Positions 11,212 through 37,077 of a stretch of 40,890 nucleotides of DNA are shown here, one piece after another. A model generated the notes under the pieces. It was given only the letters and a program-made list of their open reading frames with translations. It had not been told where the DNA came from and searched no databases. Both the position numbers and the translations under genes were made by a program. Each line of letters starts with the position of its first letter. Positions within the stretch are counted from its first letter, which is position 1. Source of the DNA: a virus (taxonomy: Duplodnaviria > Heunggongvirae > Uroviricota > Caudoviricetes); the IMG/VR virus record IMGVR_UViG_2877953467_000002. One strand, given 5' to 3'.

Positions 11212-11212
11212 C

Positions 11213-13470: not shown

Positions 13471-13475
13471 CAAGG

Positions 13476-13503
13476 TTGATTTTTCCGGAATCTGTGGTAA
13501 ATT
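13476..13503 (+). promoter_or_regulatory. Candidate late promoter PR' (TTGATT -35, TAAATT -10)
   Basis: Lies 6 bp after the Q stop and about 50 bp before a strong intrinsic terminator, matching lambda PR'/qut/tR' geometry. Confidence 0.4.
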
Positions 13504-13552
13504 CGTCATAATAATGGGCTTTTTATGCCTGACGTTAGAAGAGTTTCTACAA

Positions 13553-13575
13553 CCCGCCGCCGAGCGGGTTTTTTA
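13553..13575 (+). terminator. tR'-like intrinsic terminator; would end a short (about 65-nt) PR' transcript
   Basis: CCCGC-CGCCGA-GCGGG hairpin followed by TTTTTT. Confidence 0.65.
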
Positions 13576-13613
13576 TTGCGGAATTAATTACGGACCGTTA
13601 TTATTCTACTCCC

Positions 13614-13689
13614 GGCCCTTTAGCTCAGTGGTGAGAGCGAGCGACTCATAATCGCCAGGTCGCTGGTTCAAATCCAGCAAGGGCCACCA
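13614..13689 (+). tRNA. ileZ: tRNA with CAU anticodon, closest to tRNA-Ile2 (ileX/ileZ-like)
   Basis: 76-nt cloverleaf folded by hand: acceptor GGCCCTT/AAGGGCC, D-arm GCTC...GAGC, anticodon loop CTCATAA, T-arm GCTGG TTCAAAT CCAGC, encoded CCA; near-identical to E. coli ileX as recalled. Confidence 0.8.
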
Positions 13690-13789
13690 TCACAAACCGC
13701 CATTAGCTTATCAGGAAGAGCAGACGACACGATAACAGGGTTGTTGGTGCGGGGGCGGGTCCCCGATGGCGGTCCATTATCGGTATTCA

Positions 13790-13866
13790 GCGTTGTTAGC
13801 TCAGCCGGGCAGAGCAATTGCCTTCTAAGCAGCTGTGGTTGCACTCCTGTTGTTTCTGGTGGTGAT
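13790..13866 (+). tRNA. tRNA-Arg(UCU)-like sequence, probably degenerate
   Basis: 5' half resembles argU-type tRNA (GCGTTGTTAGCTCAGCCGGGCAGAGCAATTGCCTTCTAAGC) but no canonical T-arm or acceptor 3' strand could be folded. Confidence 0.3.
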
Positions 13867-14031
13867 GGTGGACTTCAGCAGCCGGATAATGTCGGTGCTG
13901 TCTGATGGTGTTTTGGTGGCGGGTGTGTGGTTGTTGCTTTCCCGTTGCTGAAAAAGAAAGCATCAGGCGATTAGCAGGGTATCAGTTACCCGTTGAAATT
14001 TTTAAATACCTCACAATTCCACAGCTTGATG

Positions 14032-14228
14032 ATTGTCTGGCTGCCGGAGAATTTGTTAAAAATTACATCGCATGGTGAATCCCCCTCAGCGGCGGGGCAT
14101 CTGGCAAAGTGTATGATCCAGAGAACATGCAAATTCAGTAGACAGGCTGAATTTACCGGGAGGCCCCTGGCACCATGCGACAGACAGAAATTAGGCTATA
14201 CTTCAGCCCCTCTCCGGAGGGGCTTTTC
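14032..14228 (+). repeat. Noncoding repeat unit, copy 1, ending in an intrinsic terminator (14205-14228)
   Basis: About 200 bp; shares ATTGTCTGGC, GTTTGTTAAAAA, GCATGGTGAATCCCCCT, an ACCGGGAGGC-CC-GGCACCATGC hairpin motif and the terminator AGCCCCTC-TCCG-GAGGGGCT with copy 2. Confidence 0.5.
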
Positions 14229-14418
14229 TGTGCAGGATGTGTCACAGTTTCCTGAATTCTGAGTACTGTCCTGTTACTCAGGGTGCTATATTTTCTGACG
14301 TGATGAAAGTCTGCCGGAAGGCGGAACGTATCGGAAATGACCCAGTAGAGAAAACGTTGACTCAGATACCGATGCTGAGTTACCGGGAAACCGGCATCAC
14401 ATGACCGCTATCCTTCCA

Positions 14419-14441
14419 GGCTCGCTCCGGCGGGCCTTTTT
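14419..14441 (+). terminator. Intrinsic terminator ending a short unit between the two repeat copies
   Basis: GGCTCGC-TCCG-GCGGGCC hairpin plus TTTTT; the upstream segment begins TTTCTGACGTGATG, loosely like the DicF 5' end. Confidence 0.5.
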
Positions 14442-14500
14442 ACTGCAGAAAACAGTTTTCCCGTAAAATGCCACGTTGCTCATAATTCAGGCTGGCGATT

Positions 14501-14693
14501 ATTGTCTGGCCGGCGGGAAGTTTGTTAAAAAATTTCGCATGGTGAATCCCCCTGTGCGGAGGGGTAATCAGCGAGTAGGTATATGGGATAATCGCGGATT
14601 CAGGTGCTGGTACTGAATTCACCGGGAGGCACCCGGCACCATGCAATGGCACATAGCGCCACTCTCCAGCCCCTCTCCGGAGGGGCTGTTTAT
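14501..14693 (+). repeat. Noncoding repeat unit, copy 2, ending in an intrinsic terminator (14668-14693)
   Basis: See copy 1; conserved blocks flank a divergent central segment. Confidence 0.5.
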
Positions 14694-14722
14694 ATTGATT
14701 TTGTCAGATGTGAGTAAACTCC

Positions 14723-15058
14723 TTATGGACTTTGTTGTTTTAGTCCATAAGGACATATTTGCAGAATGCAACGGTTATTAAAGCATTCATTCAATACGTT
14801 ATCTGTATTTGTAGGGCATTCCTGGCTGTTTTTGATTAAATTCCAGAATGTTTTATTGAATGGTACTACGTTGTAAATGGTTACAGGTAGCACTTTGTTA
14901 TTGAGCATGATACCTGTGTGAGTCAGTGTAAATATACTTTCAGGAGGTAAGAAAGCATCCGATTGATACCAGATTATTAATTTTACTTTACTCCATATGA
15001 CTGAAAAAGATATTCCGCATGATGGCTGGATAACTGTATCAATTACAATCCACTTCAT
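14723..15058 (-). CDS. Hypothetical protein in an AT-rich segment (moron candidate)
   Basis: 111-aa ORF with AAGGAAG RBS 6 nt upstream; AT-rich flanks; perfect 12-bp-stem hairpin (14720-14753) at its 3' end; no recognisable domain. Confidence 0.45.
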
Positions 15059-15318
15059 TTAGCTTCCTTGTTTATGCCTTGCTGGTGATGTTCTGAAAAG
15101 TATAAATGATATTTTTGAATATAAACCATAGAGCAGAATTATTTTTCTGATGTTGTTTATTGTTTATTTAAATGCAGGGTGGTTTATATCTCGTCTTGTA
15201 GTTTATCCATGCATATCTGCTTGATGATCAGGTTTCTATTTAAGGTATGGTTTTGTGTTTTTTCTGTGTTACATGTCTGGTATTTTAAAGAATTATTTTT
15301 CAGATGGTGGAAAGAACC

Positions 15319-15507
15319 ATGGCATTTAAACACTATGATGTTGTCAGGGCGGCGCCGCCGTCAGATCTTGCGGAAAAGCTGACACATAAACTGAAAGAGG
15401 GCTGGCAGCCGTTTGGTAGTCCGGTGGCCATAACCCCTTATACCCTGATGCAGGCGATTGCAGCAGAAGGTGATGTGGTGGTCAGTGGTGCAACTGAGCC
15501 GGAGTGA
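15319..15507 (+). CDS. Small conserved phage protein upstream of the holin (possibly DUF1737-like)
   Basis: 62 aa from ATG 15319; position typical of a small conserved gene preceding S in lambdoid phages; family label from memory. Confidence 0.4.
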   Translation: MAFKHYDVVRAAPPSDLAEKLTHKLKEGWQPFGSPVAITPYTLMQAIAAEGDVVVSGATEPE

Positions 15508-15751
15508 TACTACGTCATCGTACTGGCCCGGCATTCCAGACCATAAAAGACGGTCTGGCAGTGGGACTAAATGCACTGACGCTGACGGATATTACCAAAA
15601 ATGCAACGTATGGCGTTGAGATAGAAAGTCTGGTGCTGGAGATAAATACACCGGCATCATCATAAAAAGTGAGCCAGTCAAATGGAAGGTATCGTTAAAC
15701 TCACCGGTAGTGTCAGTGGATCGTCTGAGACGCTTGCATGAGTTATCAGAG

Positions 15752-15780
15752 CCATCAGTAGTTAACTGGTGGCTTTTTTA
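15752..15780 (+). terminator. Intrinsic terminator-like hairpin just upstream of the holin
   Basis: CCATCAG-TAGTTAA-CTGGTGG hairpin followed by CTTTTTTA. Confidence 0.45.
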
Positions 15781-15814
15781 TTGTTGTCAGCTTCCGGATA
15801 ACGGGAGACGGGGT

Positions 15815-16030
15815 ATGGACCAGATGGAAAAAATCACAACAGGTGTGTCATACACCACGTCAGCGGTGGGAACGGGCTACTGGTTCCTGCAGTTGCTGGA
15901 CAGGGTTTCCCCGTCTCAGTGGGCGGCAATAGGCGTGCTGGGGAGTCTGCTGTTTGGGCTGCTGACATATCTGACTAACCTGTATTTCAAAATCAGAGAG
16001 GACCGTCGTAAGGCGGCACGGGGAGAGTAA
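15815..16030 (+). CDS. S: Pinholin (phage 21 S-type holin, class II) with dual-start motif
   Basis: 71 aa [10 protein letters not shown]... with Met1/Met4 dual start; two TM segments; C-terminal [15 protein letters not shown] as in S21 (from memory). Confidence 0.85.
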
Positions 16031-16034
16031 TTCA

Positions 16035-16385
16035 ATGACTCAAAACTATGAACTGATTGTGAAAGGGATCCGCAATTTTGAGAATAAAGTTACGGTAACT
16101 TTAGCGTTACGGGACAAAAAACGCTTTGACGGTGAAATTTTTGACCTGGACATCTCGCTGGACCGTGTTGAAGGTGCCGCGCTGGAGTTTTATGAGGCAG
16201 CAGCCAGAATGAGTATCAGACAGGTCTTCCTGGATGTTGCTGCCGGGTTATGTGAAGGGGATGAGCAGTCGCCGGAAAAGCGCCCCGTAATTTTAGAGGC
16301 GCAGAATGTATGGATAACCTACAAAGGAAAGCTACCGGGAAGAATTACTGGTTCTCTGAAGACTCCTCCGGAATCACAACCTTAA
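16035..16385 (+). CDS. ydfR: YdfR-like protein (DUF1327-type) between holin and endolysin
   Basis: 116-aa ORF with GGAGAG RBS; same position as ydfR between essQ and rrrQ in Qin; function unknown. Confidence 0.5.
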   Translation: MTQNYELIVKGIRNFENKVTVTLALRDKKRFDGEIFDLDISLDRVEGAALEFYEAAARMSIRQVFLDVAAGLCEGDEQSPEKRPVILEAQNVWITYKGKLPGRITGSLKTPPESQP

Positions 16386-16448
16386 GTCACTGACCGGAAC
16401 AGATAAACCTGTCCGTGGGCAGAAACCGATAAATCCTGATAAATATCC

Positions 16449-16982
16449 ATGAACGCAAAAATCAGATACGGCCTGTCGGCTGCCGTTCTGGCACTGATTG
16501 CCGTCGGTGCGCCCGCGCCTGATATTCTCGACCAGTTTCTGGATGAAAAAGAAGGTAACCACACAACGGCATACCGCGATGGGTCCGGCATCTGGACCAT
16601 CTGTCGGGGTGCCACGATGGTGGATGGAAAACCCGTTTTTCCCGGTATGAAACTGTCGAAGGAAAAATGCGACCAGGTCAACGCCATTGAGCGTGATAAG
16701 GCGCTGGCATGGGTGGAGCGCAATATTAAAGTACTACTGACCGAACCACAAAAAGCGGGTATAGCGTCATTCTGTCCCTATAACATTGGCCCCGGTAAGT
16801 GTTTCCCGTCGACGTTTTATAAGCGGCTGAATGCCGGTGATCGTAAGGGCGCATGCGAGGCGATTCGCTGGTGGATAAAAGATGGTGGGCGCGATTGCCG
16901 CATACGTTCAAATAACTGCTATGGACAGGTTATTCGTCGTGACCAGGAAAGCGCATTAGCCTGTTGGGGGATAGAGCAGTGA
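16449..16982 (+). CDS. R: SAR endolysin (T4-lysozyme-like GH24 muramidase, R21-type)
   Basis: 177 aa; N-terminal signal-anchor-release segment ([18 protein letters not shown]); E...D...T catalytic region ([20 protein letters not shown]); pairs with the pinholin. Confidence 0.9.
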
Positions 16983-17440
16983 GCAGAGTCGCCGCGATTA
17001 TTTATGCTTTGGTTATCTGCATCATCGTCTGCCTGTCGTGGGCGGTCAATCATTACCGTGATAACGCCATCGCCTACAAAGAACAGCGTGATAAAAAAGT
17101 CAGTGAGCTGAAGCAGGCGATCGCCACTATCGCTGACATGCAGCAGCGTCAGCGTGATGTTGCTGCACTCGATGCAAAGTACTCGAGAGAATTAGCCAAT
17201 GCGAAAGCTGAAAATGAAACTCTGCGCGCTGATGTTGCCGCTGGTCGTCGTCGGTTGCACATCAAAGCAGTCTGTCAGTCAGTGCGTGAAGCCACCACCG
17301 CCTCCGGCGTGGATAATGCAACCAGCCCCCGACTGGCAGACACCGCTGAACGGGATTATTTCACCCTCAGAGAGAGGCTGATCACAATGCAAAAACAACT
17401 GGAAGGAACCCAGAAGTATATTAATGAGCAGTGCAGATAG
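16979..17440 (+). CDS. Rz: i-spanin Rz
   Basis: About 153 aa from GTG 16979 overlapping the endolysin stop; N-terminal TM helix and coiled-coil-like periplasmic part; contains the embedded Rz1 frame. Confidence 0.75.
17199..17381 (+). CDS. Rz1: o-spanin Rz1 (lipoprotein) embedded in the +1 frame of Rz
   Basis: 60 aa; signal peptide with lipobox LVVVGC; proline-rich mature part (KPPPPPAW). Confidence 0.7.
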
Positions 17441-17471
17441 AGCTGCCCATATCGATGGGCAACTCATGCAA

Positions 17472-17765
17472 TTATTGTGAGCAATACACACGCGCTTCCA
17501 GTGGAGTATAAATGCCTAAAGTAATAAAACCGAGAAATCCATTTACGAATGTTTGCTGGGTTTCTGTTTTAACAACATTTTCTGCGCCGCCACAAATTTT
17601 GGCTGCATCAACAGTTTTCTCCTGTCCAATTCCCGAAACGAAGAAATGATGGGTGATGGTTTCCTTTGGTGTTACTGCTGTCGGTTTGTTTCCAACAGTA
17701 AACGTCTGTTGAGCACATCCTGTAATAAGCATTGCCAGAGCGGCAGAAAACAACATTTTTTTCAT
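17472..17765 (-). CDS. bor: Bor lipoprotein (serum-resistance moron)
   Basis: 97 aa MKKMLFSAALAMLITGCAQQ...; lipobox ITGC; matches lambda Bor as recalled; sits after Rz as in lambda. Confidence 0.9.
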   Translation of the reverse strand: MKKMLFSAALAMLITGCAQQTFTVGNKPTAVTPKETITHHFFVSGIGQEKTVDAAKICGGAENVVKTETQQTFVNGFLGFITLGIYTPLEARVYCSQ

Positions 17766-17945
17766 CTTATTATCCTGCATTGTTAAAAACGGCAGAATCC
17801 TATGTGACAACAATTAAACGATAGTTAAATGGATTGATGAAAATTAAAACTATATAGGTGGATGCTCAGCCTATTGGAGGTAGTCAGGATTTGAATGTCA
17901 GTCTGTTGTCGGCATTCTGGCAATGCAATTTGGATAAAGCGGGGA

Positions 17946-18068
17946 TTAAAAAGATAGAGGCGAGCCGGTCAGGTAGAAATGAATCAGGCTCAAAGTGAAG
18001 CGGAAAAGGTCTGTGGCACAAGCTGATGCAGCCATAATTACAGCCTGATGATTTGTGGAATGAAACAT
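17946..18068 (-). CDS. Possible small ORF (40 aa) upstream of bor on the same strand
   Basis: Manual translation MFHSTNHQAVIMAASACATDLFRFTLSLIHFYLTGSPLSF; perfect AAGGAGG SD 6 nt before the ATG; no other support. Confidence 0.25.
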   Translation of the reverse strand: MFHSTNHQAVIMAASACATDLFRFTLSLIHFYLTGSPLSF

Positions 18069-18148
18069 GTTGAACCTCCTTAATTGATGTTATTCGAGTG
18101 ATGAAGGCATTCTGTCCTTCTATAGTGTCCAGTAAATCAAACAGGAAA

Positions 18149-18170
18149 CTTGTCCAACGTGTTGGACAAG
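18149..18170. repeat. Perfect 22-bp palindrome CTTGTCCAACGTGTTGGACAAG
   Basis: Read directly; about 120 bp upstream of the HNH endonuclease gene in the AT-rich spacer between bor and the packaging module. Confidence 0.5.
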
Positions 18171-18290
18171 CCTCTCCATTAGTGAGTTGTATTGATCACA
18201 ACTCTACAAAGAATTCATTACTGGGTAGATGAAAATAGTTTCACTATGAATGGAGGAGGCTATGTCGGTGGCTTCTTCATTGGAGTACAT

Positions 18291-18641: not shown

Positions 18642-18788
18642 TAACAGTTCCCATCTGTAGGGGAGGGGCAGGTCAAATCTCTGCAACCCTGGCTGCTCAG
18701 TACCGCCGCCTGACCTTTCCTCGCATCGCCGCAGGTTCGAAAACTTTTTTTTGGAATGTGATTAAATGATTGATAGGTAAAATCGATT

Positions 18789-19271
18789 ATGTCTGGACCC
18801 CCGAAAACCCCGCCACGCCTGCATTTGATACGAGGTAACCCCTCAAAGCGGCCAGTTAAAGACTCCAAAAAAACCGCTAAAAAGGATGAAAAAGGTCTCC
18901 CTAAAATTCCGCAACATTTAGGGGCGCAGGGGAAGTACTGGTTCAGGCGAATGGCGGAAGAGCTGAATGCGGAAGGGATCATTTCTCAGCTCGATGCACG
19001 TGCGCTCGAGTTACTGGTGGAAGCCTACACCGAATACCGGCATCACTGCGAAATACTCGATGTTGAGGGTTATACCTACCGCACGGAAACGCAGAATGGC
19101 GATGTGCTGATCAAGGCACACCCGGCTGCTGCGATGAAGGCTGATGCCTGGAAGCGGATTCGGGCGATGCTTGCAGAGTTTGGTATGTCACCGGCAAGCC
19201 GGGCGAAAGTAAATACCGCCGGACCGGATGATGTTGATCCGCTGGCAGAGCTTTTAAAAGCGAGAGACTGA
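18789..19271 (+). CDS. terS: Terminase small subunit (P27-family-like)
   Basis: 160 aa; basic N-terminus; immediately upstream of and overlapping the large terminase. Confidence 0.75.
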   Translation: MSGPPKTPPRLHLIRGNPSKRPVKDSKKTAKKDEKGLPKIPQHLGAQGKYWFRRMAEELNAEGIISQLDARALELLVEAYTEYRHHCEILDVEGYTYRTETQNGDVLIKAHPAAAMKADAWKRIRAMLAEFGMSPASRAKVNTAGPDDVDPLAELLKARD

Positions 19272-21028
19272 TGGCAAAAGTGGCTGACGGGATCCGCTAC
19301 GCCGAACGTGTTGTTGCAGGAGAAATTGTTGCTGGCGAATTTGTCCGTCTGGCCTGCCAGCGTTTTCTTGATGATCTGAAGTACGGCGAAGAGCGGGGGA
19401 TTTATTTCAGTGAACCCCGTGCACAGCACATCCTTAATTTCTACAAATTTGTACCCCATGTGAAAGGGGCGCTGGCAGGTCAGCCCATTGAGTTGATGGA
19501 CTGGCATGTGTTTATCCTCATTAATATTTTTGGTTTTGTCATTCCGCTGGTGAATGAAGAAACCGGGGAAGTTGTCATGCGCAGCGATGGCAGTGGACGC
19601 CCGGTGATGGTGCGCCGGTTCCGGACAGCATACAACGAAGTTGCCCGTAAAAACGCAAAATCAACCCTGTCATCGGGTATCGGTCTGTATATGACGGGGG
19701 CAGATGGTGAAGGCGGGGCTGAGGTGTATTCAGCCGCAACCACGCGTGACCAGGCCAGAATTGTGTTTGAAGACGCCAAAAATATGGTCAGAAAAGCCCG
19801 GTCGACACTCGGGCGGTTGTTTGATTTCAACAAGCTGGCGATTTACCAGGAGCAGAGCGCATCAAAATTTGAACCGCTTTCCTCGGATGCAAACAACCTG
19901 GACGGTCTGAACATCCACTGCGCCATTATTGATGAGCTGCATGCTCATAAAACCCATGACGTGTGGGACGTTCTGGAAACGGCAACCGGTGCCCGTCTGC
20001 AGTCTCTGTTATTTGGCATCACCACGGCTGGCTTTAACAAGGAAGGGATTTGCTACGAGCAGCGCGATTACGCCATTAAGGTATTGCGAGGCTATAACAG
20101 CGACGTGGAGGGCGCGGTAAAAGACGACTCCTACTTTGCGATCATTTACACGCTCGATGAGGGAGATGATCCGTTTGATGAAACGGTCTGGCAGAAAGCG
20201 AATCCTGGCCTGGGCATCTGTAAACGCTGGGATGATCTGCGTCGTCTGGCGAAAAAAGCGAAGGAGCAGGTCTCTGCGCGGGTGAATTTTTTTACCAAAC
20301 ACATGAATGTGTGGGTCACTGCCGAATCTGCCTGGATGGATATGATTAAGTGGGAGAAGTGCGAATACATTGCTCCACAACATGAGCTGAAAACATATCC
20401 CATGTGGGTCGGCGTCGACCTTGCTCATAAGATTGATATCTGTGCGGCGGCAAAACTCTGGCGAACCGATAACGGACATGTTCATGCTGATTTTAAATTC
20501 TGGCTTCCGGAAGGACGGCTGGAGCGATGCTCGCGGCAGCAGGCAGAACTTTACCGGAAGTGGGCGGAGATGGATAAGCTCATCCTGACGGATGGTGATG
20601 TTATCGATCATGCTCAGATAAAAAGTGACTTACTGGAATGGATTGGCGGTGAAAACCTCAGGGAACTGGGATTTGACCCGTGGAGCGCAATGCAGTTCAG
20701 CCTGGCACTGGCTGAAGAAGGGATACCGCTGGTGGAGGTTCCGCAGACGGTCCGCAATCTGTCAGAGGCCATGAAGGAAACGGAATCACTGGTTTATGCC
20801 GGGCGTTTCCATCACAGCAATCATCCGGTCATGAACTGGATGATGTCTAACGTTACGGTAAAACCGGACAAAAACGACAACATCTTCCCGAATAAATCCA
20901 CGCCTGAAGCCAAAATCGACGGCCCTGTTGCGCTTTTTACGGCCATGAGCCGCTTTCTGGTAAATGGCGGGGGCGTGAATGACTTTCTGTCCACGCTTGA
21001 TCCTGATGAGGACCTGTTAATTCTGTGA
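19271..21028 (+). CDS. terL: Terminase large subunit (HK97-type)
   Basis: 585 aa; size and position; ATPase and nuclease regions typical of TerL; ATG overlaps the terS stop (TGATG). Confidence 0.9.
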   Translation: MAKVADGIRYAERVVAGEIVAGEFVRLACQRFLDDLKYGEERGIYFSEPRAQHILNFYKFVPHVKGALAGQPIELMDWHVFILINIFGFVIPLVNEETGEVVMRSDGSGRPVMVRRFRTAYNEVARKNAKSTLSSGIGLYMTGADGEGGAEVYSAATTRDQARIVFEDAKNMVRKARSTLGRLFDFNKLAIYQEQSASKFEPLSSDANNLDGLNIHCAIIDELHAHKTHDVWDVLETATGARLQSLLFGITTAGFNKEGICYEQRDYAIKVLRGYNSDVEGAVKDDSYFAIIYTLDEGDDPFDETVWQKANPGLGICKRWDDLRRLAKKAKEQVSARVNFFTKHMNVWVTAESAWMDMIKWEKCEYIAPQHELKTYPMWVGVDLAHKIDICAAAKLWRTDNGHVHADFKFWLPEGRLERCSRQQAELYRKWAEMDKLILTDGDVIDHAQIKSDLLEWIGGENLRELGFDPWSAMQFSLALAEEGIPLVEVPQTVRNLSEAMKETESLVYAGRFHHSNHPVMNWMMSNVTVKPDKNDNIFPNKSTPEAKIDGPVALFTAMSRFLVNGGGVNDFLSTLDPDEDLLIL

Positions 21029-21186
21029 AACAGCTTATTACTGATATGACCGGGCTGATCGGTTTCGGTTTGCTCACTGCTGGCGTTTATCTGTATGCAG
21101 GTCTGCCAGCGTCTCTGATGCTGTCGGGCTGTTTGTTGCTGCTTTATGCACTGGTAGTGTCCATGAGGAGAAAACATGCTTCTTGA
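21025..21186 (+). CDS. Possible small hydrophobic protein between terL and portal
   Basis: Manual translation from GTG 21025 (or ATG 21046): two hydrophobic segments (LIGFGLLTAGVYLYAGLPASLMLSGCLLLLYALVV); overlaps both neighbours; not in the ORF track. Confidence 0.35.
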   Translation: MKQLITDMTGLIGFGLLTAGVYLYAGLPASLMLSGCLLLLYALVVSMRRKHAS

Positions 21187-22402
21187 TGCTCTGTTTCGCA
21201 GTGAGTCTCTGGAAAATCCCTCGGTTCCGGTAACCGGAGAGGCCGCTGAGACGGATAATATTTTTGCCCGGGATGTGTATGTCAGTCCGGAAACATCCAT
21301 GAAGCTGGCTGCTGTCTATGCCTGTATTTATGTTATTTCATCCAGTGTGGCTCAGATGCCCCTGCATGTGATGCGAAAAACGAATGAGCATGTTCAGCCT
21401 GCACGCGATCATCCGTTGTTCTGGCTCGTTCATGATGAACCTAATGCCTGGCAGACCAGCTATAAGTGGCGGGAACTGAAGCAGCGTCATGTGCTGGGGT
21501 GGGGCAATGGTTATACGTGGGTAAAACGTAATCGTCGTGGAGAGGTTACCAGCCTTGAATGCTGTATGCCATGGGAAACCACGTTACTTAACACCGGTGG
21601 GCGTCATACTTACGGGGTGTATAACGAAGAGGGTGCATTTGCGGTAAGTCCGGACGACATGATCCATATCAGGGCGCTGGGAAACAATCAGAAAATGGGA
21701 CTGAGCCCGATCATGCAGCATGCTGAAACCATTGGTATGGGAATGAGTGGCCAGCAGTATACCAGCGCCTTTTTTAACGGTAATGCCCGTCCTGCCGGTA
21801 TTATTTCTGTGAAAAATGAACTGAACGAACAGAGCTGGGGCAGGCTTAAAAATATGTGGCAGCGGGCGGTGACAGCGCTTCGCAGCCAGGAAAATAAAAC
21901 CATGCTGTTGCCTGCGCAACTGGATTACCGCGCTCTGACAGTTTCTCCGGTGGATGCTCAGATCATTGATATGACCAAGCTGAACAGGTCGATGATTGCA
22001 GGGATTTTTAATGTCCCGGCGCACATGATTAATGACCTGGAAAAAGCCACATTTTCGAATATTACGCAGCAGGCGATTCAGTTTGTTCGCTACACGATGA
22101 TGCCCTGGGTTGCGAACTGGGAGCAGGAGCTTAACCGTCGCCTGTTTACCCGTACAGAACGGGCTGCCGGGTATTACGTTCGTTTTAACCTCACGGGGTT
22201 GCTCCGTGGGACCCCACAGGAGCGTGCGCAGTTCTATCACTTTGCCATTACAGATGGCTGGATGAGTCGGAATGAAGCCAGGGCATTTGAGGATATGAAC
22301 CCGGTTGACGGTCTGGATGAAATGCTGGTCAGCGTAAATGCAGCAAATCCGTTGAATAACTTTAAAGATACGAAAGGCAAAGAGGAAAAGAACGATGAAT
22401 GA
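21176..22402 (+). CDS. Portal protein (HK97 family)
   Basis: 408 aa, directly after the terminase and before the prohead protease. Confidence 0.9.
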   Translation: MLLDALFRSESLENPSVPVTGEAAETDNIFARDVYVSPETSMKLAAVYACIYVISSSVAQMPLHVMRKTNEHVQPARDHPLFWLVHDEPNAWQTSYKWRELKQRHVLGWGNGYTWVKRNRRGEVTSLECCMPWETTLLNTGGRHTYGVYNEEGAFAVSPDDMIHIRALGNNQKMGLSPIMQHAETIGMGMSGQQYTSAFFNGNARPAGIISVKNELNEQSWGRLKNMWQRAVTALRSQENKTMLLPAQLDYRALTVSPVDAQIIDMTKLNRSMIAGIFNVPAHMINDLEKATFSNITQQAIQFVRYTMMPWVANWEQELNRRLFTRTERAAGYYVRFNLTGLLRGTPQERAQFYHFAITDGWMSRNEARAFEDMNPVDGLDEMLVSVNAANPLNNFKDTKGKEEKNDE

Positions 22403-22993
22403 CCGTGAAACGCGCTGTTACAGCGGGGAGGTGCGGGCGGAACAATATGATAATGCCCGACCCACATTCTGGGGTATGGCTCGGTATTTAACAGTCGTTC
22501 AGAACCTCTGTGGGGATTTCGTGAAATCATCAAGCCGGGGGCTTTTGATGATGTACTGAATGATGATGTACGTGGCTTGTTTAATCATGATCCTAATTTC
22601 ATTCTCGGACGAAGTTCTGCCGGCACATTGTCATTGTCGGTGGATGAACGCGGTTTACGTTATGACATTGTTGCACCGGATACTCCGACTATTTGTGACC
22701 TGGTGCTGTCTCCAATGTTGCGTGGTGACATTAACCAGTCCTCGTTCGCGTTTCGTGTCGCCCGTGACGGAGAGAGCTGGTATGAAGACGACGAGGGGAT
22801 TGTTATCCGGGAAATCACGCGCATTTCTCGTCTGTATGACGTCAGCCCGGTGACATATCCGGCCTATCAGGACGCAGACTCCGGTGTCCGCTCAATGAAA
22901 GCCTGGCAGGAAGCGCGGGCGAGTGGTGCGCTGAAGAAAGCTGTTAATGAACGAATGGCGCGTGAGCGCCTTTTGACCCTTCTTAATGCATAA
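22395..22993 (+). pseudogene. Prohead protease (HK97 family), reading frame disrupted by an apparent 1-nt deletion near 22466
   Basis: N-terminal part (MNDRETRCYSGEVRAEQYDNARPT) is in one frame from ATG 22395; the rest (ILGYGSVFN...FREIIKPGAF...LFNHDPNFILGRSSAGTLSL...) continues in the -1 frame, which has no start codon before TTG 22577. Confidence 0.6.
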
Positions 22994-23007
22994 GGATACT
23001 ACTGACG

Positions 23008-24225
23008 ATGAAACTTCATGAGATGAAGCAAAAACGAAACACCATTGCAAAGGATATGCGTGCACTGCATGAAAAAATTGGTGATAACGCATGGACTGAT
23101 GAGCAACGGGCAGAGTGGAACAGGGCGAAAGCTGAGCTGGATGCGCTGGATGAGCAAATCGCCCGTGAAGAAGAGTTGCGCCGTCAGGATCAGGCATATG
23201 TGGATGAGTCCGGGCCGGAAGAGCGCCAGAATAATGAGGCGGAGAACGGGAAAAAGGCGGTGGAAGAGAAGCGTGCTGCGGCATTTAACCGTTTTCTGCG
23301 TGCCGGATTTGCAGAACTGAATGCTGAAGAGCGTAATCTGATGCGTGAACTGCGGGCTCAGAGTGTAACAACGGATTCTCAGGGCGGATATACGGTGCCC
23401 ACGCAGATGCGTAACAAAATCATTGACACCATGAAGGCTTATGGCGGGATTGCCAGTGTGGCGCAACTTCTGACCACATCAACCGGGCAGGATATCACCT
23501 GGTCAACGTCTGATGGCACGACTGAAGAGGGCGAACTGCTGGCGGAAAATACAGCCGCAACGGAACAGGATGTGACGTTCGGGACCGCTATTCTGGGGGC
23601 TAAAAAGCTGTCATCAAAAATAATTCGTGTGTCCAATGAGCTGCTCCAGGACAGTGGGGTGGATATTGAATCTTATCTGGCAAACCGTATTGCCCAGCGT
23701 ATTGGTCGTGGAGAGGCAAAATATCTGGTTCAGGGGACCGGAACGGGATCACCGTTACAGCCAAAAGGGCTGGCAGCGTCGGTGACGGGAACCATCCAGA
23801 CTGCAGCCTCTGCCGCTTTCACCTGGAAAGAAATGAATGCCCTGAAACATGCCATTGATCCGGCATATCGTGGTGGGCCGAAATACCGCTGGGCATTCAA
23901 TGATGCCACATTGCAGACTATTGAAGAGATGGAGGATGGACAGAAACGCCCGTTATGGCTGCCGGATATTGCAGGCGGTACGCCGGCTACTGTGCTGGGG
24001 ATCCCTTATGTTATTGATCAGGCTATTGACGGGATTGGTACTGGAAAAAAATTCATTTTCCTGGGGGATTTCAACCGCTTTATCATTCGCCGCGTTACTT
24101 ATATGGAACTGAAACGTCTGGTTGAGCGTTATGCTGAGTTTGATCAGGTGGCATTTCTGGCTTTCCATCGTTTTGACTGTGTGCTGGAAGATGTGGCAGC
24201 CATCAAGGCGCTCACTGGCAAATAA
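23008..24225 (+). CDS. Major capsid protein (HK97 fold) with N-terminal coiled-coil delta domain
   Basis: 405 aa; N-terminal region rich in E/R/A heptads; position after the protease; AAGGA RBS. Confidence 0.9.
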   Translation: MKLHEMKQKRNTIAKDMRALHEKIGDNAWTDEQRAEWNRAKAELDALDEQIAREEELRRQDQAYVDESGPEERQNNEAENGKKAVEEKRAAAFNRFLRAGFAELNAEERNLMRELRAQSVTTDSQGGYTVPTQMRNKIIDTMKAYGGIASVAQLLTTSTGQDITWSTSDGTTEEGELLAENTAATEQDVTFGTAILGAKKLSSKIIRVSNELLQDSGVDIESYLANRIAQRIGRGEAKYLVQGTGTGSPLQPKGLAASVTGTIQTAASAAFTWKEMNALKHAIDPAYRGGPKYRWAFNDATLQTIEEMEDGQKRPLWLPDIAGGTPATVLGIPYVIDQAIDGIGTGKKFIFLGDFNRFIIRRVTYMELKRLVERYAEFDQVAFLAFHRFDCVLEDVAAIKALTGK

Positions 24226-24247
24226 CCACTCGTTGTTCAGTTACAGA

Positions 24248-24268
24248 CCGCGCCGACGCGGTTTTTTT
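24248..24268 (+). terminator. Intrinsic terminator after the major capsid gene
   Basis: CCGCG-CCGA-CGCGG hairpin followed by TTTTTTT. Confidence 0.6.
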
Positions 24269-24301
24269 ATGCCCGCACAGTGTTGCGGGCAGGAGTTTCT
24301 G

Positions 24302-24619
24302 ATGGCAGCAATAGTGGAAAAACTCAGGGCGCAGTGCCGTATTGATACAGATGATGCAACTGATGATGAGTTACTGATGCTGTATTTCCGGGCTGCCTGC
24401 CGCAAGGCAGAAAATTTTATCAACCGTAAGCTTTATGAGGAGACGGTGCCGGAAGGTGATCCTGAAGGGGTGCTTATAGCTGATGATGTTTTGCTGGCGC
24501 TCATGTTGCTGGTCGGGCACTGGTGCGAAAACCGGGAAAATTCCTCAGATGTCAGTAAGGCACCAGTCCCGTTTGGTTTTTCTTCTCTGCTGGAGCCTTA
24601 TCGTTTTATTCCTTTGTAG
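24302..24619 (+). CDS. Head-tail connector (gp6-like DNA-packaging/head completion protein)
   Basis: About 105 aa from ATG 24302 (AGGAG RBS); first gene after the capsid gene. Confidence 0.55.
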   Translation: MAAIVEKLRAQCRIDTDDATDDELLMLYFRAACRKAENFINRKLYEETVPEGDPEGVLIADDVLLALMLLVGHWCENRENSSDVSKAPVPFGFSSLLEPYRFIPL

Positions 24620-24627
24620 GAGGAGAC

Positions 24628-24966
24628 ATGCAGGCGGGCAGATTACGTGATCGCGTAATTATTCTGAATGTCACCACCGCCCGCTCTCCGTCAGGGCATC
24701 CGGTGGAGACGGTGACGGAGGGAGCTACCGTATGGGCAGAAGTTAAGGGTATCAGCGGGAGGGAGATAATCTCAGGCGGAGCAGAAACCGCTCAGGCTAC
24801 GGTCAGAGTCTGGATGAGATTCCGGCGCGATGTGACAGCGACTTCACGTCTGAAAGTGCTGACCGGTGCATTTAAAGGGGCCATTCTGGGTATAGAAGGT
24901 CCACCAATACCGGATGCACGCGCTACCCGGCTTGAAATACTCTGCAGCCTGAAGGGGAATGTGTGA
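24628..24966 (+). CDS. Head closure / head-tail adaptor protein
   Basis: 112 aa; GGAGG RBS; conserved order in HK97-like head modules. Confidence 0.6.
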   Translation: MQAGRLRDRVIILNVTTARSPSGHPVETVTEGATVWAEVKGISGREIISGGAETAQATVRVWMRFRRDVTATSRLKVLTGAFKGAILGIEGPPIPDARATRLEILCSLKGNV

Positions 24967-25412
24967 TGGATTTCAGTCTTGATTTTTCCGGCCTGGCGGA
25001 TATTGCACGGGATTTGGAGACGCTCAGCAGGGCAGAAAACAATAAGGTTCTGCGCGATGCCACCCGTGCCGGTGCTGAAGTTATGCGGGATGCAGTTGTT
25101 GAACGTGCGCCGGAGCGAACCGGGAAACTGAAGAAAAATGTGGTTGTTCTCACTCAGCGTTCAAAGCGTCGGGGGGAAATTATCTCGGGTGTCCACATTC
25201 GCGGACGGAACCTGCGAACCGGAAACAGTGATAACAGCATGAAAGCCAGCGATCCCCGAAATGCATTTTACTGGCGCTTTGTGGAGCTGGGAACGATAAA
25301 CATGCCCGCGCATCCATTCATTCGCCCGGCTTTCGATACGACAGAGGAGCTGGCGGCGCAGGTTGCCATACAGCGAATGAATCAGGCTATTGATGAGGTC
25401 TTAAGTAAATGA
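24966..25412 (+). CDS. Tail-component protein (HK97 gp10-like)
   Basis: About 148 aa; overlaps the stop of the preceding gene; position in the head-tail joining block. Confidence 0.55.
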   Translation: MDFSLDFSGLADIARDLETLSRAENNKVLRDATRAGAEVMRDAVVERAPERTGKLKKNVVVLTQRSKRRGEIISGVHIRGRNLRTGNSDNSMKASDPRNAFYWRFVELGTINMPAHPFIRPAFDTTEELAAQVAIQRMNQAIDEVLSK

Positions 25413-25753
25413 GGGAGGGCACACTGTATTCCCTGTTGTCTCAGCTGGCCGGAGGACAGGTTTATCCTTATGTGGTCCCGCTGACGGAGGGAAAGCCTGC
25501 AGTATCTCCGCCGTGGCTGGTGTTTTCTGTGGTGTCTGACACGGTATCTGATGTGCTTGATGGGCAGGCTGAATCCAGAATTACCGTGCAGATCGATGTC
25601 TGGGCGACAGTACCTGATGACGCAGATAATATTCGTGAGCAGGCGCTTGATGCGGTAAGAAAACTGGCACCCTCCGTTATTTCTAAAACGCAGGGTTATG
25701 ATCCTGACTCCCGTCTGAGCAGAGCCACGCTTGAATTCCAGGTAATAGCCTGA
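25409..25753 (+). CDS. Tail terminator / tail completion protein (gpU-like)
   Basis: 114 aa; ATGA overlap with the upstream gene; immediately upstream of the major tail protein. Confidence 0.5.
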   Translation: MREGTLYSLLSQLAGGQVYPYVVPLTEGKPAVSPPWLVFSVVSDTVSDVLDGQAESRITVQIDVWATVPDDADNIREQALDAVRKLAPSVISKTQGYDPDSRLSRATLEFQVIA

Positions 25754-25813
25754 GGTCATTAATGATTTTACCCACCCGCCGCTGGCGGGTTTTTTTATTT
25801 TCAGGAGACGAGT

Positions 25814-26518
25814 ATGTCCTCTAATTTTGAGCGTTCGCAACTGACGAAAATTATGATTTCGTCTGCACCGGTAACAGCAGAAACCCTGGATTCTGCCAGC
25901 TATCTTGGCCTGAGCTGTACAATCAAAGAGGTGCAGTTTACCGCAGGACAAAAGCAGGATATTGATGTCACCACGCTGTATTCTGTTGAGCAGGAAAATA
26001 TTAACGGTCTTGGGGCTGCTTCAGAGATTTCCATGTCAGGCAACTTTTATCTGAATGCTGCCCAGAACGCGTTGCGCAGTGCCTATGACAATGACACCAC
26101 GTATGGCTTTAAAGTTATTTTTCCGTCAGGCAACGGATTTACCTTTATGGCAGAGGTGCGTCAGCATACCTGGTCTGCAGGAACCAATGGTGTTGTGGCT
26201 GCAACGTTTTCTCTGCGCCTGAAAGGTAAGCCTGTGCTGACGACAGAGCAGCTGAAAGTGAAGGTCGATTTAAAAAGCACGCTGCGGGTTGCTTCCGGAG
26301 CGAAACTTGAAATGGCGGTTGAGGCTGTGGGTGGTGTGCCGCCTTATTCTTATGCCTGGAAAAAAGGTGGTTCTCCTGTTTCCGGACAGACGGCGGCAAC
26401 GTTCAGTAAGGCATCAGCAGCATCCGGTGATGCCGGTGCGTATACCTGCGAGATTTCTGATTCAGCGAGCCCGGTTAACAAAGTGACCTCCACTTCCTGC
26501 ACTGTAACCGTCAGTTAA
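25814..26518 (+). CDS. Major tail protein with C-terminal Ig-like domain
   Basis: 234 aa; AGGAG RBS; C-terminal 90 aa have an Ig-like (Big_2-type) pattern as in lambda gpV; followed by the G/GT chaperone pair. Confidence 0.7.
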   Translation: MSSNFERSQLTKIMISSAPVTAETLDSASYLGLSCTIKEVQFTAGQKQDIDVTTLYSVEQENINGLGAASEISMSGNFYLNAAQNALRSAYDNDTTYGFKVIFPSGNGFTFMAEVRQHTWSAGTNGVVAATFSLRLKGKPVLTTEQLKVKVDLKSTLRVASGAKLEMAVEAVGGVPPYSYAWKKGGSPVSGQTAATFSKASAASGDAGAYTCEISDSASPVNKVTSTSCTVTVS

Positions 26519-26532
26519 TGAGGATGGATGTG

Positions 26533-26904
26533 ATGACTAAAAATATCCGTAATCTGGCACTGGCAACGATGTCGGGGTTTCGCCATAAAACCGTTGATGT
26601 GCCTGAATGGGAGGGAGCAACGGTTGTGTTACGGGAACCTTCTGCAGAAGCCTGGTTGCGCTGGCAGGAGATCGTTAAAGCAAAAGATGATGAGACACCG
26701 TTATCCGTTGCGGAGCGCGCCCGCCGAAATCTGGAGGCAGATGTTGAACTGTTCATTGATGTTCTGTGTGATACCGGACTGCAACCCGTATTTTCAGAGG
26801 ATGATCGTGAACAGGTGATTGCCGTGTATGGCCCGGTGCATGCGCGGCTTCTTCGGCAGTCTCTGGAACTGATCAGTGATGCCGGCGAGGTTAAAAAAAA
26901 GTAG
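26533..26904 (+). CDS. G: Tail assembly chaperone G
   Basis: ORF ends ...GEVKKK* with the slippery heptamer A AAA AAG (26895-26901) at its 3' end; start at ATG 26533 (GAGG upstream) is uncertain, could be 26518. Confidence 0.7.
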   Translation: MTKNIRNLALATMSGFRHKTVDVPEWEGATVVLREPSAEAWLRWQEIVKAKDDETPLSVAERARRNLEADVELFIDVLCDTGLQPVFSEDDREQVIAVYGPVHARLLRQSLELISDAGEVKKK

Positions 26905-27206
26905 CGCTTCCGGGGATGCGTTTTCTGATGATGCTGGCGCTCAGGATGGGGCGCACATTGTCAGAGTTACGCCGGGAAATGTCCGCATCAGAAATCATGA
27001 TGTGGGCAGAATTTGACAGGTTCAGCCCGCTGGGGGACGAACGGGCTGATTTCCGGGCTGCCCAGATTGTTTCAGCTATTTACGGTGCGCAGGGGGTCAA
27101 AGTGTCACTGAATGATGCGCTTCTTCAGTGGGAGAAGGAGCAGACAGAAGGCGCTTCAGATCCATTTGCCGGACTGGAAAACGCGCTTTTAATAGTGTCT
27201 CAGTGA
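26533..27206 (+). CDS. GT: Tail assembly chaperone GT, made by programmed -1 ribosomal frameshift at 26895-26901
   Basis: The -1 frame is open from the A-run through ORF 26916-27206; slipping on A AAA AAG joins ...EVKK to KVALPGMRFL...; conserved G/GT arrangement upstream of the tape measure gene. Confidence 0.7.
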
Positions 27207-27246
27207 GTCAACATAACCGCTTCGGCGGTTTTTTTTCGTCCGGAGA

Positions 27247-30200
27247 ATGAGTGTGGCGACATTACGTGAACTGATTATTAAAATCTCGGCAAACTCCCGG
27301 TCATTCCAGTCAGAGATCTCCCGGGCTTCGCGTATGGGGCAGGATTACTACCGCACCATGCAGAACGGAGGCCAACAGTCTGCTGCTGCCTCCCGTGAAA
27401 TGCGGCGTGCACTGGCAGAAGTGACGGATCAGATAAATACAGCTAAATCTTCGGCACTGAATATGGCGGGGGCATTTGCCGGGGCTTTTGCTACCGGTCA
27501 TCTTATTTCTCTCGCCGATGAGTGGAATTCAGTAAATGCCCGTCTGAAGCAGGCCTCACAGTCCAGTGATGATTTTCAGGCATCACAGCGTGAATTAATG
27601 GCGATCAGCCAGAGAACGGGGACGGCGTTTTCTGATAACGCCAGCCTTTTTGCCCGTTCTGCAGCTTCCATGCGGGAGTATGGTTACAGTTCTGAGGAGG
27701 TACTGAAAGTCACCGAGGCGATCTCCACGGGCCTGAAATTATCCGGTGCCAGTACAGCAGAAGCCAGTTCGGTGATCATGCAGTTCAGTCAGGCACTGGC
27801 GCAGGGAGTGCTGCGCGGTGAAGAGTTTAACTCGGTGAATGAGAACGGCGATCGTGTTATTCGTGCGCTGGCTGCGGGAATGGGGGTTGCCCGTAAGGAT
27901 CTGAAGGCCATGGCGGATAACGGAAAACTGACCGCCGATAAGGTTGTTCCTGCACTGATTAGTCAGCTTGGGGCGTTGCGTGATGAATATGCAGCAATGC
28001 CTGATACTGTTTCATCCTCTGCAACCAAAGTTGAAAACGCCTTTATGGCCTGGGTTGGTGGTGCGAACGAGGCAAGCGGAGTGACAAAGACACTCTCCGG
28101 TGTGCTGAATGGTGTTGCAGACAATATTGATACCGTGGCTGCTGCAGCTGGCGCACTGGTTGCCGTCGGGGTAGCCCGATATTTTGGCAATATGGCGTCG
28201 TCTGCTGGATCTGCAACTGCCGGATTAATTACTGCAGCCAGAAACGAAGTGGCTCTTGCTGAAGCGCAACTTCGGGGGACACAGATAGCAACCGCCAGAG
28301 CGCGTGCGGCGGTTTATCGTGCGCAACAGGCGGTTGTTGCTGCTCGCGGTACCGAAAGGCAGGCCGCAGCAGAAGCGAAGCTGACAGCTGCTCAGGCGTC
28401 ACTTACCCGTAATATTGCGGCCAGAACAGCGGCGCAGACAACGCTGAATACTGTCACGTCAGTGGGGAGTCGTCTGTTAAGTGGTGCGCTGGGGCTGGTT
28501 GGTGGTGTGCCGGGACTCGTCATGCTGGGGGCGACGGCCTGGTACACGATGTATCAGAATCAGGAGCAGGCCAGAGAATCTGCACGCCAGTATGCCGCAA
28601 CAATCGACGAAATTCGCCAGAAAACGTCGGCAATGTCGCTTCCTGAAGCGTCAGATAATGAGGAAAAGACGCGGCAGGCACTTGATGAGCAAAACAGGTT
28701 AATTGACGAGCAGAAAAGTAAGATTAAATCCTTACAGGAAAAAATTGCTGGCTATCAGTATGTGCTGGCAAACCCGGGCTGGACAACCGATAACGGTTTT
28801 ATGATTAACCACATGACGTCGGTAAAAACAGTCACAGAAGGGCTTGCAGAAGCAACAAATCAACTGGCAGTTGAACAGTCCCGTCTCACACAAATGCAGG
28901 GCAAAGCGCAATCCATTCAGGATGTGCTTGCCGGGCTGGAGGAGCGGCGGGTTGCGTTGATCCGTCAACAGGCGGCGGAACAAAACAAAGCGTATCAGTC
29001 CCTGTTGATCATGAATGGGCAGCATACCGAGTTTAATCGCCTTCTTGGGCTTGGTAATGAATTACTTCAGCAGCGACAGGGGTTGGTGAATGTACCGTTA
29101 CGGCTACCACAGGCAACCCTGGATGATAAACAGCAGACCGCACTGAATAACAGCAAGCGCGAACTGGCTCTGTCCCGCCTTAAGGGGGAAGCGCGTGAGC
29201 GTGCTCGACTGGGCTATGCTGCGGATGATCTTGGCTTTGTGGGAGAGGCGTATCAGACAGCCAGACAGAATTATATCAATAACTCACTGGATGCCTGGCG
29301 AAATAACCAGGCAAATAAACCCAAAGCGCATAAAAAGACCGAAGCGGAAAAAACAGAAGATATTTATAAACGGCTGATTAAACAGCAAAAAGAACAGATA
29401 GCACTGGCAGGGCAGAATACTGAACTGGCTAAGATGAAATATCAGGTCAGTCAGGGCGAATTATCAACCCTGTCAGAAGCGCAGAAAAAAACGCTTTTGC
29501 AGAATGCAGCACTCATCGACCAGAAAAAGATTCGTGAGCAGCTTGCTGCGTATGAAAGCAGCCTGGCGGACAGTAATGCCAGTACCCGGGCGTCTAACGA
29601 CGCGCAGTTACTGGGATATGGTGAAGGCTCACGGATGCGTGAACGACTCCAGGAAATGTGGAGTATCCGGCATGAGTTTGAGCAGAAAAATAACGAGCTG
29701 CTGAGACAGTATCAGGCCGGAGAAATTGAAGAAGCCCTGTGGAAACAGGAGAAAGAACTGAATAAAAAATATCTGGAAGAGCGTCTCAGCGATCAGCAGG
29801 ATTATTATGCAAAGGCCGATGCTTTACGTAATAACTGGAATGCAGGACTCCAGGAGGGGCTGACCAACTGGGCAGACAGTGCCACCGATTATGCTTCGCA
29901 GGCGGCAGATGCTGTCGTTTCCACTATGGACGGGCTGGTATCAAATATTTCCGATGCACTGGCCGGAAATGTTGTGGACTGGAGGAACTGGGGGAGTTCA
30001 GTTCTCCGGGAAGTTTCAAAAATTCTGATGAATGCAGCCATTGTTAACGGACTGAAATCACTCTCCGGTGCCGGAGGGTGGCTTGGTACGGTCGGCGGAT
30101 GGATTTCGGGGGCAGTGGCAAACGCAAAAGGTGGTGTTTACACATCGGCAAATCTGAGTGCTTACAGTAACACTATTGTGGATACACCGACGTATTTTGC

Positions 30201-30480
30201 TTTTGCGAAGGGGGCCGGGTTGATGGGCGAGGCCGGGCCTGAAGCAATCATGCCACTGACACGGGCAGCGGACGGCTCTCTTGGGGTCAGGGCCATTGGA
30301 GATGTGAATGGTGGCGGTGGATTTGTTTATTCTCCCGTGTATCACATCAGCATTCAGAATCAAGGGAGCAATGGCGAGATAGATGCGCGCTCAGCCAGGG
30401 GACTGGTGGATCTGATCGACAGCAGGGTTGTGTCAATTATGCAGTCATCGCGTCGGGATGGAGGATTGTACAGTGCCTGA
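27247..30480 (+). CDS. H: Tail tape measure protein
   Basis: 1077 aa, Ala/Gln-rich with coiled-coil character; position between GT and gpM. Confidence 0.9.
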   Translation: MSVATLRELIIKISANSRSFQSEISRASRMGQDYYRTMQNGGQQSAAASREMRRALAEVTDQINTAKSSALNMAGAFAGAFATGHLISLADEWNSVNARLKQASQSSDDFQASQRELMAISQRTGTAFSDNASLFARSAASMREYGYSSEEVLKVTEAISTGLKLSGASTAEASSVIMQFSQALAQGVLRGEEFNSVNENGDRVIRALAAGMGVARKDLKAMADNGKLTADKVVPALISQLGALRDEYAAMPDTVSSSATKVENAFMAWVGGANEASGVTKTLSGVLNGVADNIDTVAAAAGALVAVGVARYFGNMASSAGSATAGLITAARNEVALAEAQLRGTQIATARARAAVYRAQQAVVAARGTERQAAAEAKLTAAQASLTRNIAARTAAQTTLNTVTSVGSRLLSGALGLVGGVPGLVMLGATAWYTMYQNQEQARESARQYAATIDEIRQKTSAMSLPEASDNEEKTRQALDEQNRLIDEQKSKIKSLQEKIAGYQYVLANPGWTTDNGFMINHMTSVKTVTEGLAEATNQLAVEQSRLTQMQGKAQSIQDVLAGLEERRVALIRQQAAEQNKAYQSLLIMNGQHTEFNRLLGLGNELLQQRQGLVNVPLRLPQATLDDKQQTALNNSKRELALSRLKGEARERARLGYAADDLGFVGEAYQTARQNYINNSLDAWRNNQANKPKAHKKTEAEKTEDIYKRLIKQQKEQIALAGQNTELAKMKYQVSQGELSTLSEAQKKTLLQNAALIDQKKIREQLAAYESSLADSNASTRASNDAQLLGYGEGSRMRERLQEMWSIRHEFEQKNNELLRQYQAGEIEEALWKQEKELNKKYLEERLSDQQDYYAKADALRNNWNAGLQEGLTNWADSATDYASQAADAVVSTMDGLVSNISDALAGNVVDWRNWGSSVLREVSKILMNAAIVNGLKSLSGAGGWLGTVGGWISGAVANAKGGVYTSANLSAYSNTIVDTPTYFAFAKGAGLMGEAGPEAIMPLTRAADGSLGVRAIGDVNGGGGFVYSPVYHISIQNQGSNGEIDARSARGLVDLIDSRVVSIMQSSRRDGGLYSA

Positions 30481-30814
30481 GCCTGAAGTTTTTAACTGGA
30501 TCCCCCGTGAGGGGATGGAGACGACACGAAAGCCATCAGTTATTACGGTAAAGTTTGGTGACGGATATGAACAGCGACGGGCTGGTGGTCTGAATGCGGA
30601 TCTGAAAACGTTTAAACCGGTATTTCGTGTCACAGATGAATATTCCCGTGCCGCGCTGGACAGTTTTTTATCCCGTCATGCCGGGATTCGTGCTTTTTTG
30701 TGGCGTCCGCCAAAACACAACAGGACTGTCCGGGTTGTCTGCAGGGAGTGGAGCATTTCGGATAATGCCATGTATACCGATTTTAACTGTACCTTTGAAG
30801 AGGTCACTCACTGA
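30473..30814 (+). CDS. M: Minor tail protein M
   Basis: About 113 aa from GTG 30473 (GGAGGA RBS); core resembles lambda gpM (KFGDGYEQRRAGGLNADLKT...). Confidence 0.8.
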   Translation: MPEPEVFNWIPREGMETTRKPSVITVKFGDGYEQRRAGGLNADLKTFKPVFRVTDEYSRAALDSFLSRHAGIRAFLWRPPKHNRTVRVVCREWSISDNAMYTDFNCTFEEVTH

Positions 30815-31512: not shown

Positions 31513-31517
31513 ATCCC

Positions 31518-32806: not shown

Positions 32807-32866
32807 TGCAAAACGTTTTATGTGAAACCGCCTCAGGGCGGTTTTGTCGTTTCTGGAGCGTGAGGA

Positions 32867-37066: not shown

Positions 37067-37077
37067 GTGGGGTGAAT

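Follow-up and report, generated by a model that had tools for sequence, protein, structure and literature searches.

The stretch of DNA analyzed here (the window, 40,890 nucleotides) comprises a whole prophage, from the integrase gene (1-1119, minus strand) to the tail fibre gene. The order of genes in its head region, portal - protease - major capsid, is that of HK97 (Table 1), and the ATG of the protease gene overlaps the end of the portal gene (ATGAATGA), which is the usual coupled arrangement of such genes. Translation of 22395-22993 in all three forward frames revealed that the protease gene is divided between two of them. Frame 0, starting at the ATG at 22395, reads MNDRETRCYSGEVRAEQYDNARPTFWGMARY.../MNDRETRCYSGEVRAEQYDNARPTFWGMARYLTVVQNL... 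until its stop at 22557-22559, and its first 21 residues are identical to those of intact homologues. The body frame reads CPTHILGYGSVFNSRSEPLWGFREIIKPGAF...LFNHDPNFILGR...LLNA (its start is also given as CPTHILGYGSVFNSRSEPLWGFREIIKPGAFDDVLNDDVRGLFNHDPNFILGR..., and its end as RLLTLLNA), and the two open frames overlap by about 100 nt (22454-22559). The body frame matched the Pfam family PF04586, Peptidase_S78 (caudovirus prohead serine protease), with E=1.4e-39 and 136.3 bits, and this match, together with the 21 frame-0 residues shared with intact homologues, argues that the split is not a product of chance. The translations and the Pfam match are thus in agreement with an earlier note on this DNA, made from the sequence alone, which had described a prohead protease gene split across two frames at 22395-22993.

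Table 1. Features of the protease region, in coordinates of the window
Feature	Position	Strand	Remarks
Portal protein gene	21176..22402	+	Pfam Phage_portal E=3.3e-100; Overlaps the protease start by 8 nt
HK97-family (Peptidase_S78) prohead maturation protease pseudogene	22395..22993	+	600 nt / 199 aa if one C is added
ORF from the native ATG, 54 aa	22395..22559	+	21 native and 33 out-of-frame residues, then TGA
Body frame (-1 relative to the ATG), whole S78 domain	22454..22993	+	Stop at 22991-22993
Lesion: C3 run, C4 in intact alleles (GCCCCG -> GCCCG)	22456..22458	+	Loss of one base after codon Ala21
Major capsid protein gene (HK97 fold), 405 aa	23008..24225	+	Pfam Phage_capsid E=2e-70, residues 126-403 only

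To the family profile, the protein repaired by addition of one base matched with E=1.6e-40 and 139.4 bits (cut-off 21), and the 54-aa ORF gave no Pfam match. In a BLASTP comparison with HK97 gp4 (NP_037700.1), the repaired protein showed 31% identity (E=5e-10); its His65 (FNHD) aligned with His65 of gp4 and its Ser117 (QSSFAF) with Ser114 of gp4, the two residues of gp4 which we take to be catalytic. A phmmer search of the repaired protease against PDB sequences returned nothing at E<=0.01. On the basis of the profile match, the alignment of the catalytic residues and the position between the portal and capsid genes, we assign the gene to the S78/HK97 protease family. The resemblance to HK97 extends to the predicted capsid protein, which gave a weak BLASTP match to HK97 gp5 and also has a long N-terminal extension ahead of the capsid domain; its first ~125 residues presumably form the scaffold (delta) domain, on which the protease would be expected to act. 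The protein differs from HK97 gp4 in its length (199 vs 225 aa) and is only distantly related to it in sequence, and, with the frame broken after codon 21, the copy in the window is a pseudogene and not an enzyme.

The intact form of the gene was found by a megablast search of 22100-23300 against a phage collection, which returned records that matched the window with one extra base. Two of them, ON470619 (vB_EcoS-813R8) and PV340570 (PhiR49_2), were 99.9% and 99.3% identical to the window over 1.2 kb, respectively, and both contain an intact protease gene. An alignment with intact proteases of related prophages had been proposed in the earlier note, and alignment with these genes showed them to be identical to the window except for a gap of one C: in a five-sequence DNA alignment of 182 columns, the single gap was the sole non-identical column, and the intact genes have AATGCCCCGACC there, compared with AATGCCCGACC in the window. 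The C run at 22456-22458 of the window is flanked by G 22455 and G 22459. The intact alleles compared, WP_000999828.1 of E. coli SCEC020023, URE76679.1 of vB_EcoS-813R8 and XSB43096.1 of PhiR49_2, all have C4 and a single ORF of 199 aa (MNDRETRCYSGEVRAEQYDNAPTHILGYGSVFN...), and over the aligned 182 nt their DNA is that of the window save for one C. Addition of one C to the window yielded a 199-aa protein identical to that of the near-identical prophages, as the earlier note had anticipated for a single missing base. The exact position was placed differently there. The junction had been mapped to CCC ACA TTC (22464-22468), about 8 nt too far downstream of the C run in which the alignment puts the gap. 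The native sequence across the break is ...YDNA-PTHILGYG..., and the junction peptide of the full-length protease is ...AEQYDNAPTHILGYGSVFNSR; the 'RPT' that had been read as part of the conserved N-terminus is out-of-frame read-through, which by chance repeats the 'PT' of the native 'APTH'.

Both His65 and Ser117 lie downstream of the break, in the body frame, so translation from 22395 cannot yield them. We found no ATG, GTG or TTG in the body frame from 22454 to TTG 22577, which is the first canonical start of this frame and opens an ORF of 138 aa. Its product spans only profile positions 55-159 of 165, lacking the first ~55, and inspection by eye found no Shine-Dalgarno-like sequence upstream of this TTG. 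Internal initiation at TTG 22577 as a route to active enzyme was rejected because of the truncated domain and the lack of a Shine-Dalgarno-like sequence. There is thus no uninterrupted ORF that expresses the S78 domain from a start codon, and since the break follows codon 21 and TTG 22577 is the earliest start in the body frame, we filed the gene as a pseudogene of the family and not as a working member.

A lesion of this kind may be produced by sequencing as well as by mutation: the strain could in truth be C4, with one homopolymer C dropped from the draft. The window is a scaffolded draft with a run of Ns at 40382-40392, and the lesion lies in a homopolymer, where the commonest kind of sequencing error occurs. 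However, the variant is not private to one assembly or platform. With the 1.2-kb query, at least 30 complete E. coli chromosomes were 100% identical over 1201 nt. When 5426 complete E. coli genomes were searched with an 80-nt C3 probe with the C run at its centre and an 81-nt probe from the intact allele (C4), the C3 probe matched 608 genomes, 95 of them exactly, and the C4 probe matched 330 exactly; among the matches listed, the non-exact remainder of the 608 were 81-nt spans with one to three SNPs, and no C5 or C2 allele was seen. The complete genomes with C3 come from many laboratories and platforms. In public assemblies, the exact 54-aa frameshift product was called on 549 contigs and the intact 199-aa protein on at least 1000.

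C3 is also present in the GenBank records ON470607, ON470612 and ON470621, which are prophages that PHASTER predicted in Illumina HiSeq/SPAdes assemblies of clinical isolates (bioRxiv 10.1101/2022.06.29.498070). A miscall between C3 and C4 is unlikely on that platform, and the three records are therefore independent, homopolymer-robust support for C3. We rejected their use as proof of packaging, since they are predictions from assemblies and not virion DNA, and are silent on viability. In the carriers checked, moreover, the C3 allele is limited to one prophage, one site and one clone, with C4 in 330 genomes, a restriction that indicates inheritance and not random error. For the window itself, the one support for the C3 call is its near-identity to complete C3 genomes, from which it differs by 2 SNPs in 40.4 kb. 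Of the two alternatives offered in the earlier note, an inactivating mutation was upheld by the alignment at the lesion and by the inheritance of the allele, and a base-calling error was contradicted by the 95 complete genomes, the Illumina records and the 549 contigs. We consider it very unlikely that the strain is C4, and an artefact of base calling confined to this assembly can effectively be dismissed.

The distribution of the two alleles points to the origin of the deletion. Compared with the M217 chromosome, the window has 2 SNPs in 40,381 nt. In M217 and three further carriers of C3 (Sanji, ECONIH6 and 51243816-SK1A), an identical integrase protein directly adjoins potC-potD-ymfA-ycfZ. 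These four strains, as well as WCHEC005237, CRE1493, AR_0150/0151 and 51008369SK1, have been described as ST167 (PMC6392093, PMC7193042). AR_0014 and Y5, listed as ST167 in the same literature table, carry C4, and the presence of both alleles within ST167 indicates that the deletion arose inside this sequence type. In SCEC020023, this prophage occupies the same potC-adjacent site and encodes the intact protease WP_000999828.1. The SCEC020023 copy differs from the window at 8 positions in 40.4 kb, namely 6 SNPs and 2 one-base indels, of which one is the protease C and the other is a G at 18668, between the HNH and terS genes. Such near-identity at a shared site has, as far as the sequences compared tell, the signature of a single recent mutation that was carried clonally. 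The mutation would thus have occurred recently within E. coli ST167, in the prophage beside potC, and would have been passed on vertically. We are confident that the S78 protease of this prophage was inactivated by a genuine C4 to C3 deletion, which is recent in ST167 and inherited, and which probably entails the loss of virions.

The expected course of events starts with ribosomes that enter at ATG 22395, which would read 21 correct and 33 wrong codons before they terminate at 22557-22559. As the -1 frame, which holds the catalytic domain, has neither a start codon nor a ribosome-binding site of its own, no active protease would be made. HK97 shells without active protease stall at uncleaved Prohead I. 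By analogy with HK97, shells of the prophage could still assemble from portal and capsid protein, with the scaffold (delta) domain left uncleaved; the proheads would then stall, without packaging of DNA. Assembly of HK97 shells halts at successive stages according to the set of portal, protease and capsid genes expressed (PMC10275583). The prophage may still excise, replicate and lyse but would not fill heads, and infectious particles would not be expected from it unless the lesion were complemented or reverted.

Alternatively, particles could still be made without the prophage's own protease, with the break acting as a throttle on virion output in the high-risk clone ST167 and not as a kill switch. 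Three routes to this outcome can be envisaged: rare spontaneous -1 frameshifting at GCC-CGA, reversion from C3 to C4 in a subpopulation, or an S78 protease borrowed from a co-resident prophage. All other head and tail genes are open, a state which is predicted by a recent lesion and is also compatible with function by an unrecognised route. In the complete-genome copies, the open and unflagged genes are those for terminase, portal, capsid, connectors, tail tube and tape measure, for the tip proteins M/L/K/I/J, Lom, holin, lysozyme and a Rz-like lysis protein, and for a Q-like antiterminator, integrase and excisionase. We think it very improbable that the break is a throttle of this kind, and inactivation of the protease by an inherited deletion remains our preferred reading.

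Signs of age were found in C3 and C4 copies alike: a DUF1737 gene that is only partial, a small hypothetical gene with a frameshift, and a side-tail-fibre gene interrupted by IS3-family elements. The lesion in the protease gene is the clearest disabling hit on the prophage, and the label of a cryptic prophage, used in the earlier note, seems plausible from the sequence. In the window, the long side-tail-fibre ORF (37072-40890) contains the scaffold gap of 11 Ns at 40382-40392. The equivalent position is occupied by IS3-family elements in SCEC020023, and by IS3-family/IS629 fragments and a group II intron in M217. A gap of this type is as expected for an IS collapsed in a short-read draft, and the tail-fibre gene is probably IS-disrupted in the strain of the window too, which may restrict the formation of plaques even if packaging were restored.

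The two frames could also be joined by programmed recoding, in which a -1 ribosomal frameshift or transcriptional slippage would still yield full-length protease, perhaps at a low, regulated level. The overlap of the frames would permit it, as a -1 shift anywhere in 22454-22559 gives a fusion, and phage morphogenesis modules do use programmed frameshifts, including the G/T genes of the window. However, when 22395-22559 was scanned for X_XXY_YYZ heptamers, none turned up in the ATG frame or in any other, which confirmed what the earlier note had claimed; the same scan, as an internal positive control, found A_AAA_AAG in the G gene (26895-26901). The longest homopolymers in 22395-22559 were G5 and T4, and this segment has no A/T run long enough for polymerase slippage. 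Furthermore, the native sequence is regained only by a shift at the C run itself, where the codons are not slippery: as reasoned from codon-anticodon pairing, GCC-CGA offers no re-pairing for a -1 slip. Among diverged homologues, the protease genes of phage Evi, Klebsiella phage vB_VIPKPNMC05 and SfV (97%, 78% and 77% DNA identity, respectively) each form one ORF with a colinear N-terminus, and those of PhiR49_2 and 813R8 are one ORF each, so that the arrangement is conserved in none of these five. Since none of the diverged relatives examined has it, and most near-identical copies lack it too, the two-frame state is derived and unconserved. With no heptamer and no conservation of the arrangement, a programmed frameshift was rejected, and we regard recoding as extremely unlikely.

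The comparison with the lambdoid tail assembly chaperones gpG/gpGT illustrates the difference. Both cases involve two overlapping frames in a phage morphogenesis operon. In G/T, however, the canonical A_AAA_AAG is followed at once by the stop of the upstream frame, and each of the two parts has its own Pfam match, whereas the protease junction is without a slippery signal and its two-frame state is not conserved in relatives.

A reversible switch, in which the short C tract would toggle between C3 and C4 and turn virion production on and off as in phase variation, could account for the coexistence of both alleles in ST167 on otherwise near-identical prophages, but it is exceedingly improbable, since slippage in a tract of only 3-4 bases is much too infrequent to drive phase variation (known contingency loci have tracts of about 7 bases or more), all listed C3 copies are the same over 1.2 kb and occupy one site, which fits a single event followed by clonal spread, and C5 or C2 alleles are absent among the matches listed.

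A clonally inherited deletion has well-known parallels. One-base frameshift pseudogenes occur in resident E. coli prophages, for instance in stf of laboratory lambda PaPa, and in the decay of Rac, Qin and e14. The protease gene resembles them in that a one-base indel kills a structural gene in an otherwise complete-looking lambdoid prophage and spreads clonally; it does not differ from them in kind, and this instance marks a sub-lineage of ST167. It is therefore an ordinary prophage pseudogene and nothing new, as the public annotation already says 'frameshifted': the RefSeq/PGAP label on the identical locus of E. coli M217 is 'HK97 family phage prohead protease; frameshifted' (pseudogene).

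The finding has little import beyond annotation. The locus should be labelled as one frameshifted pseudogene, instead of the pair of 'head maturation protease' CDSs given in ON470612 and the records related to it. In ON470607, ON470612 and ON470621, which PHASTER calls 'intact', the protease is annotated as two such CDSs (URC10071.1 and URC10072.1), an artefact that is spreading into protein databases. Where PHASTER-type tools call this element an intact prophage in ST167 genomes, they are probably too optimistic. Within the NDM-5-associated ST167 clone, the C3/C4 difference can serve as a handy marker of a sub-lineage, and the C3 and C4 prophages at the same site make a natural isogenic pair for testing the mobility of a prophage that carries bor/iss.

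The Bor/Iss serum-resistance lipoprotein gene (17475-17765, minus strand; Pfam Lambda_Bor E=3.7e-30; annotated as iss in RefSeq) is placed, in opposite orientation, between the genes for lysis and those for HNH/terminase. This moron is expressed in lysogeny and is kept by the host with or without virion production. In the intergenic region between the HNH endonuclease and small terminase genes (18642-18788), the window and M217 have the extra G at 18668, in GTAGGGGAGGGGCAGG, in comparison to SCEC020023; the indel sits where a HK97-like cos site would be expected.

Two further annotations in complete genomes differ from our reading of the window. The tail chaperone genes (26533-27206, plus strand) contain GTT AAA AAA AAG TAG, in which A_AAA_AAG immediately precedes the stop of G, and a -1 shift at 26895-26901 fuses G (Pfam Phage_TAC_1) to T (Pfam Phage_tail_T); PGAP gives G and T as separate CDSs. 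The repressor ORF (5842-6480, minus strand) encodes 212 aa with HTH_3 and Peptidase_S24 domains (CI/LexA-like) and is open from ATG 6480. For M217 and SCEC020023, RefSeq has only its C-terminal 112 aa (WP_001420344.1, 'LexA family protein'), and the start codon of the repressor looks to have been called too short there.

A single tRNA with the anticodon CAU (13614-13689, plus strand) is located downstream of the Q-like antiterminator gene. ARAGORN assigned it as tRNA-Met and PGAP as tRNA-Ile, presumably of the lysidine-modified type; at the equivalent position, PhiR49_2 has three tRNAs (Met, Arg, Arg). A literature search on phage PhiR49_2 or PV340570 found nothing. The prophage is mosaic in relation to PhiR49_2: the head-tail module (18660-35354) is 96.7% identical and the early region (~1-18200) is unrelated. 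According to the RefSeq annotation of the identical M217 prophage, this early region is Rac/Qin-like, with dicB, ydfC, ydfD, hokD, a YdaT-family toxin, IraM, RusA and DUF968.
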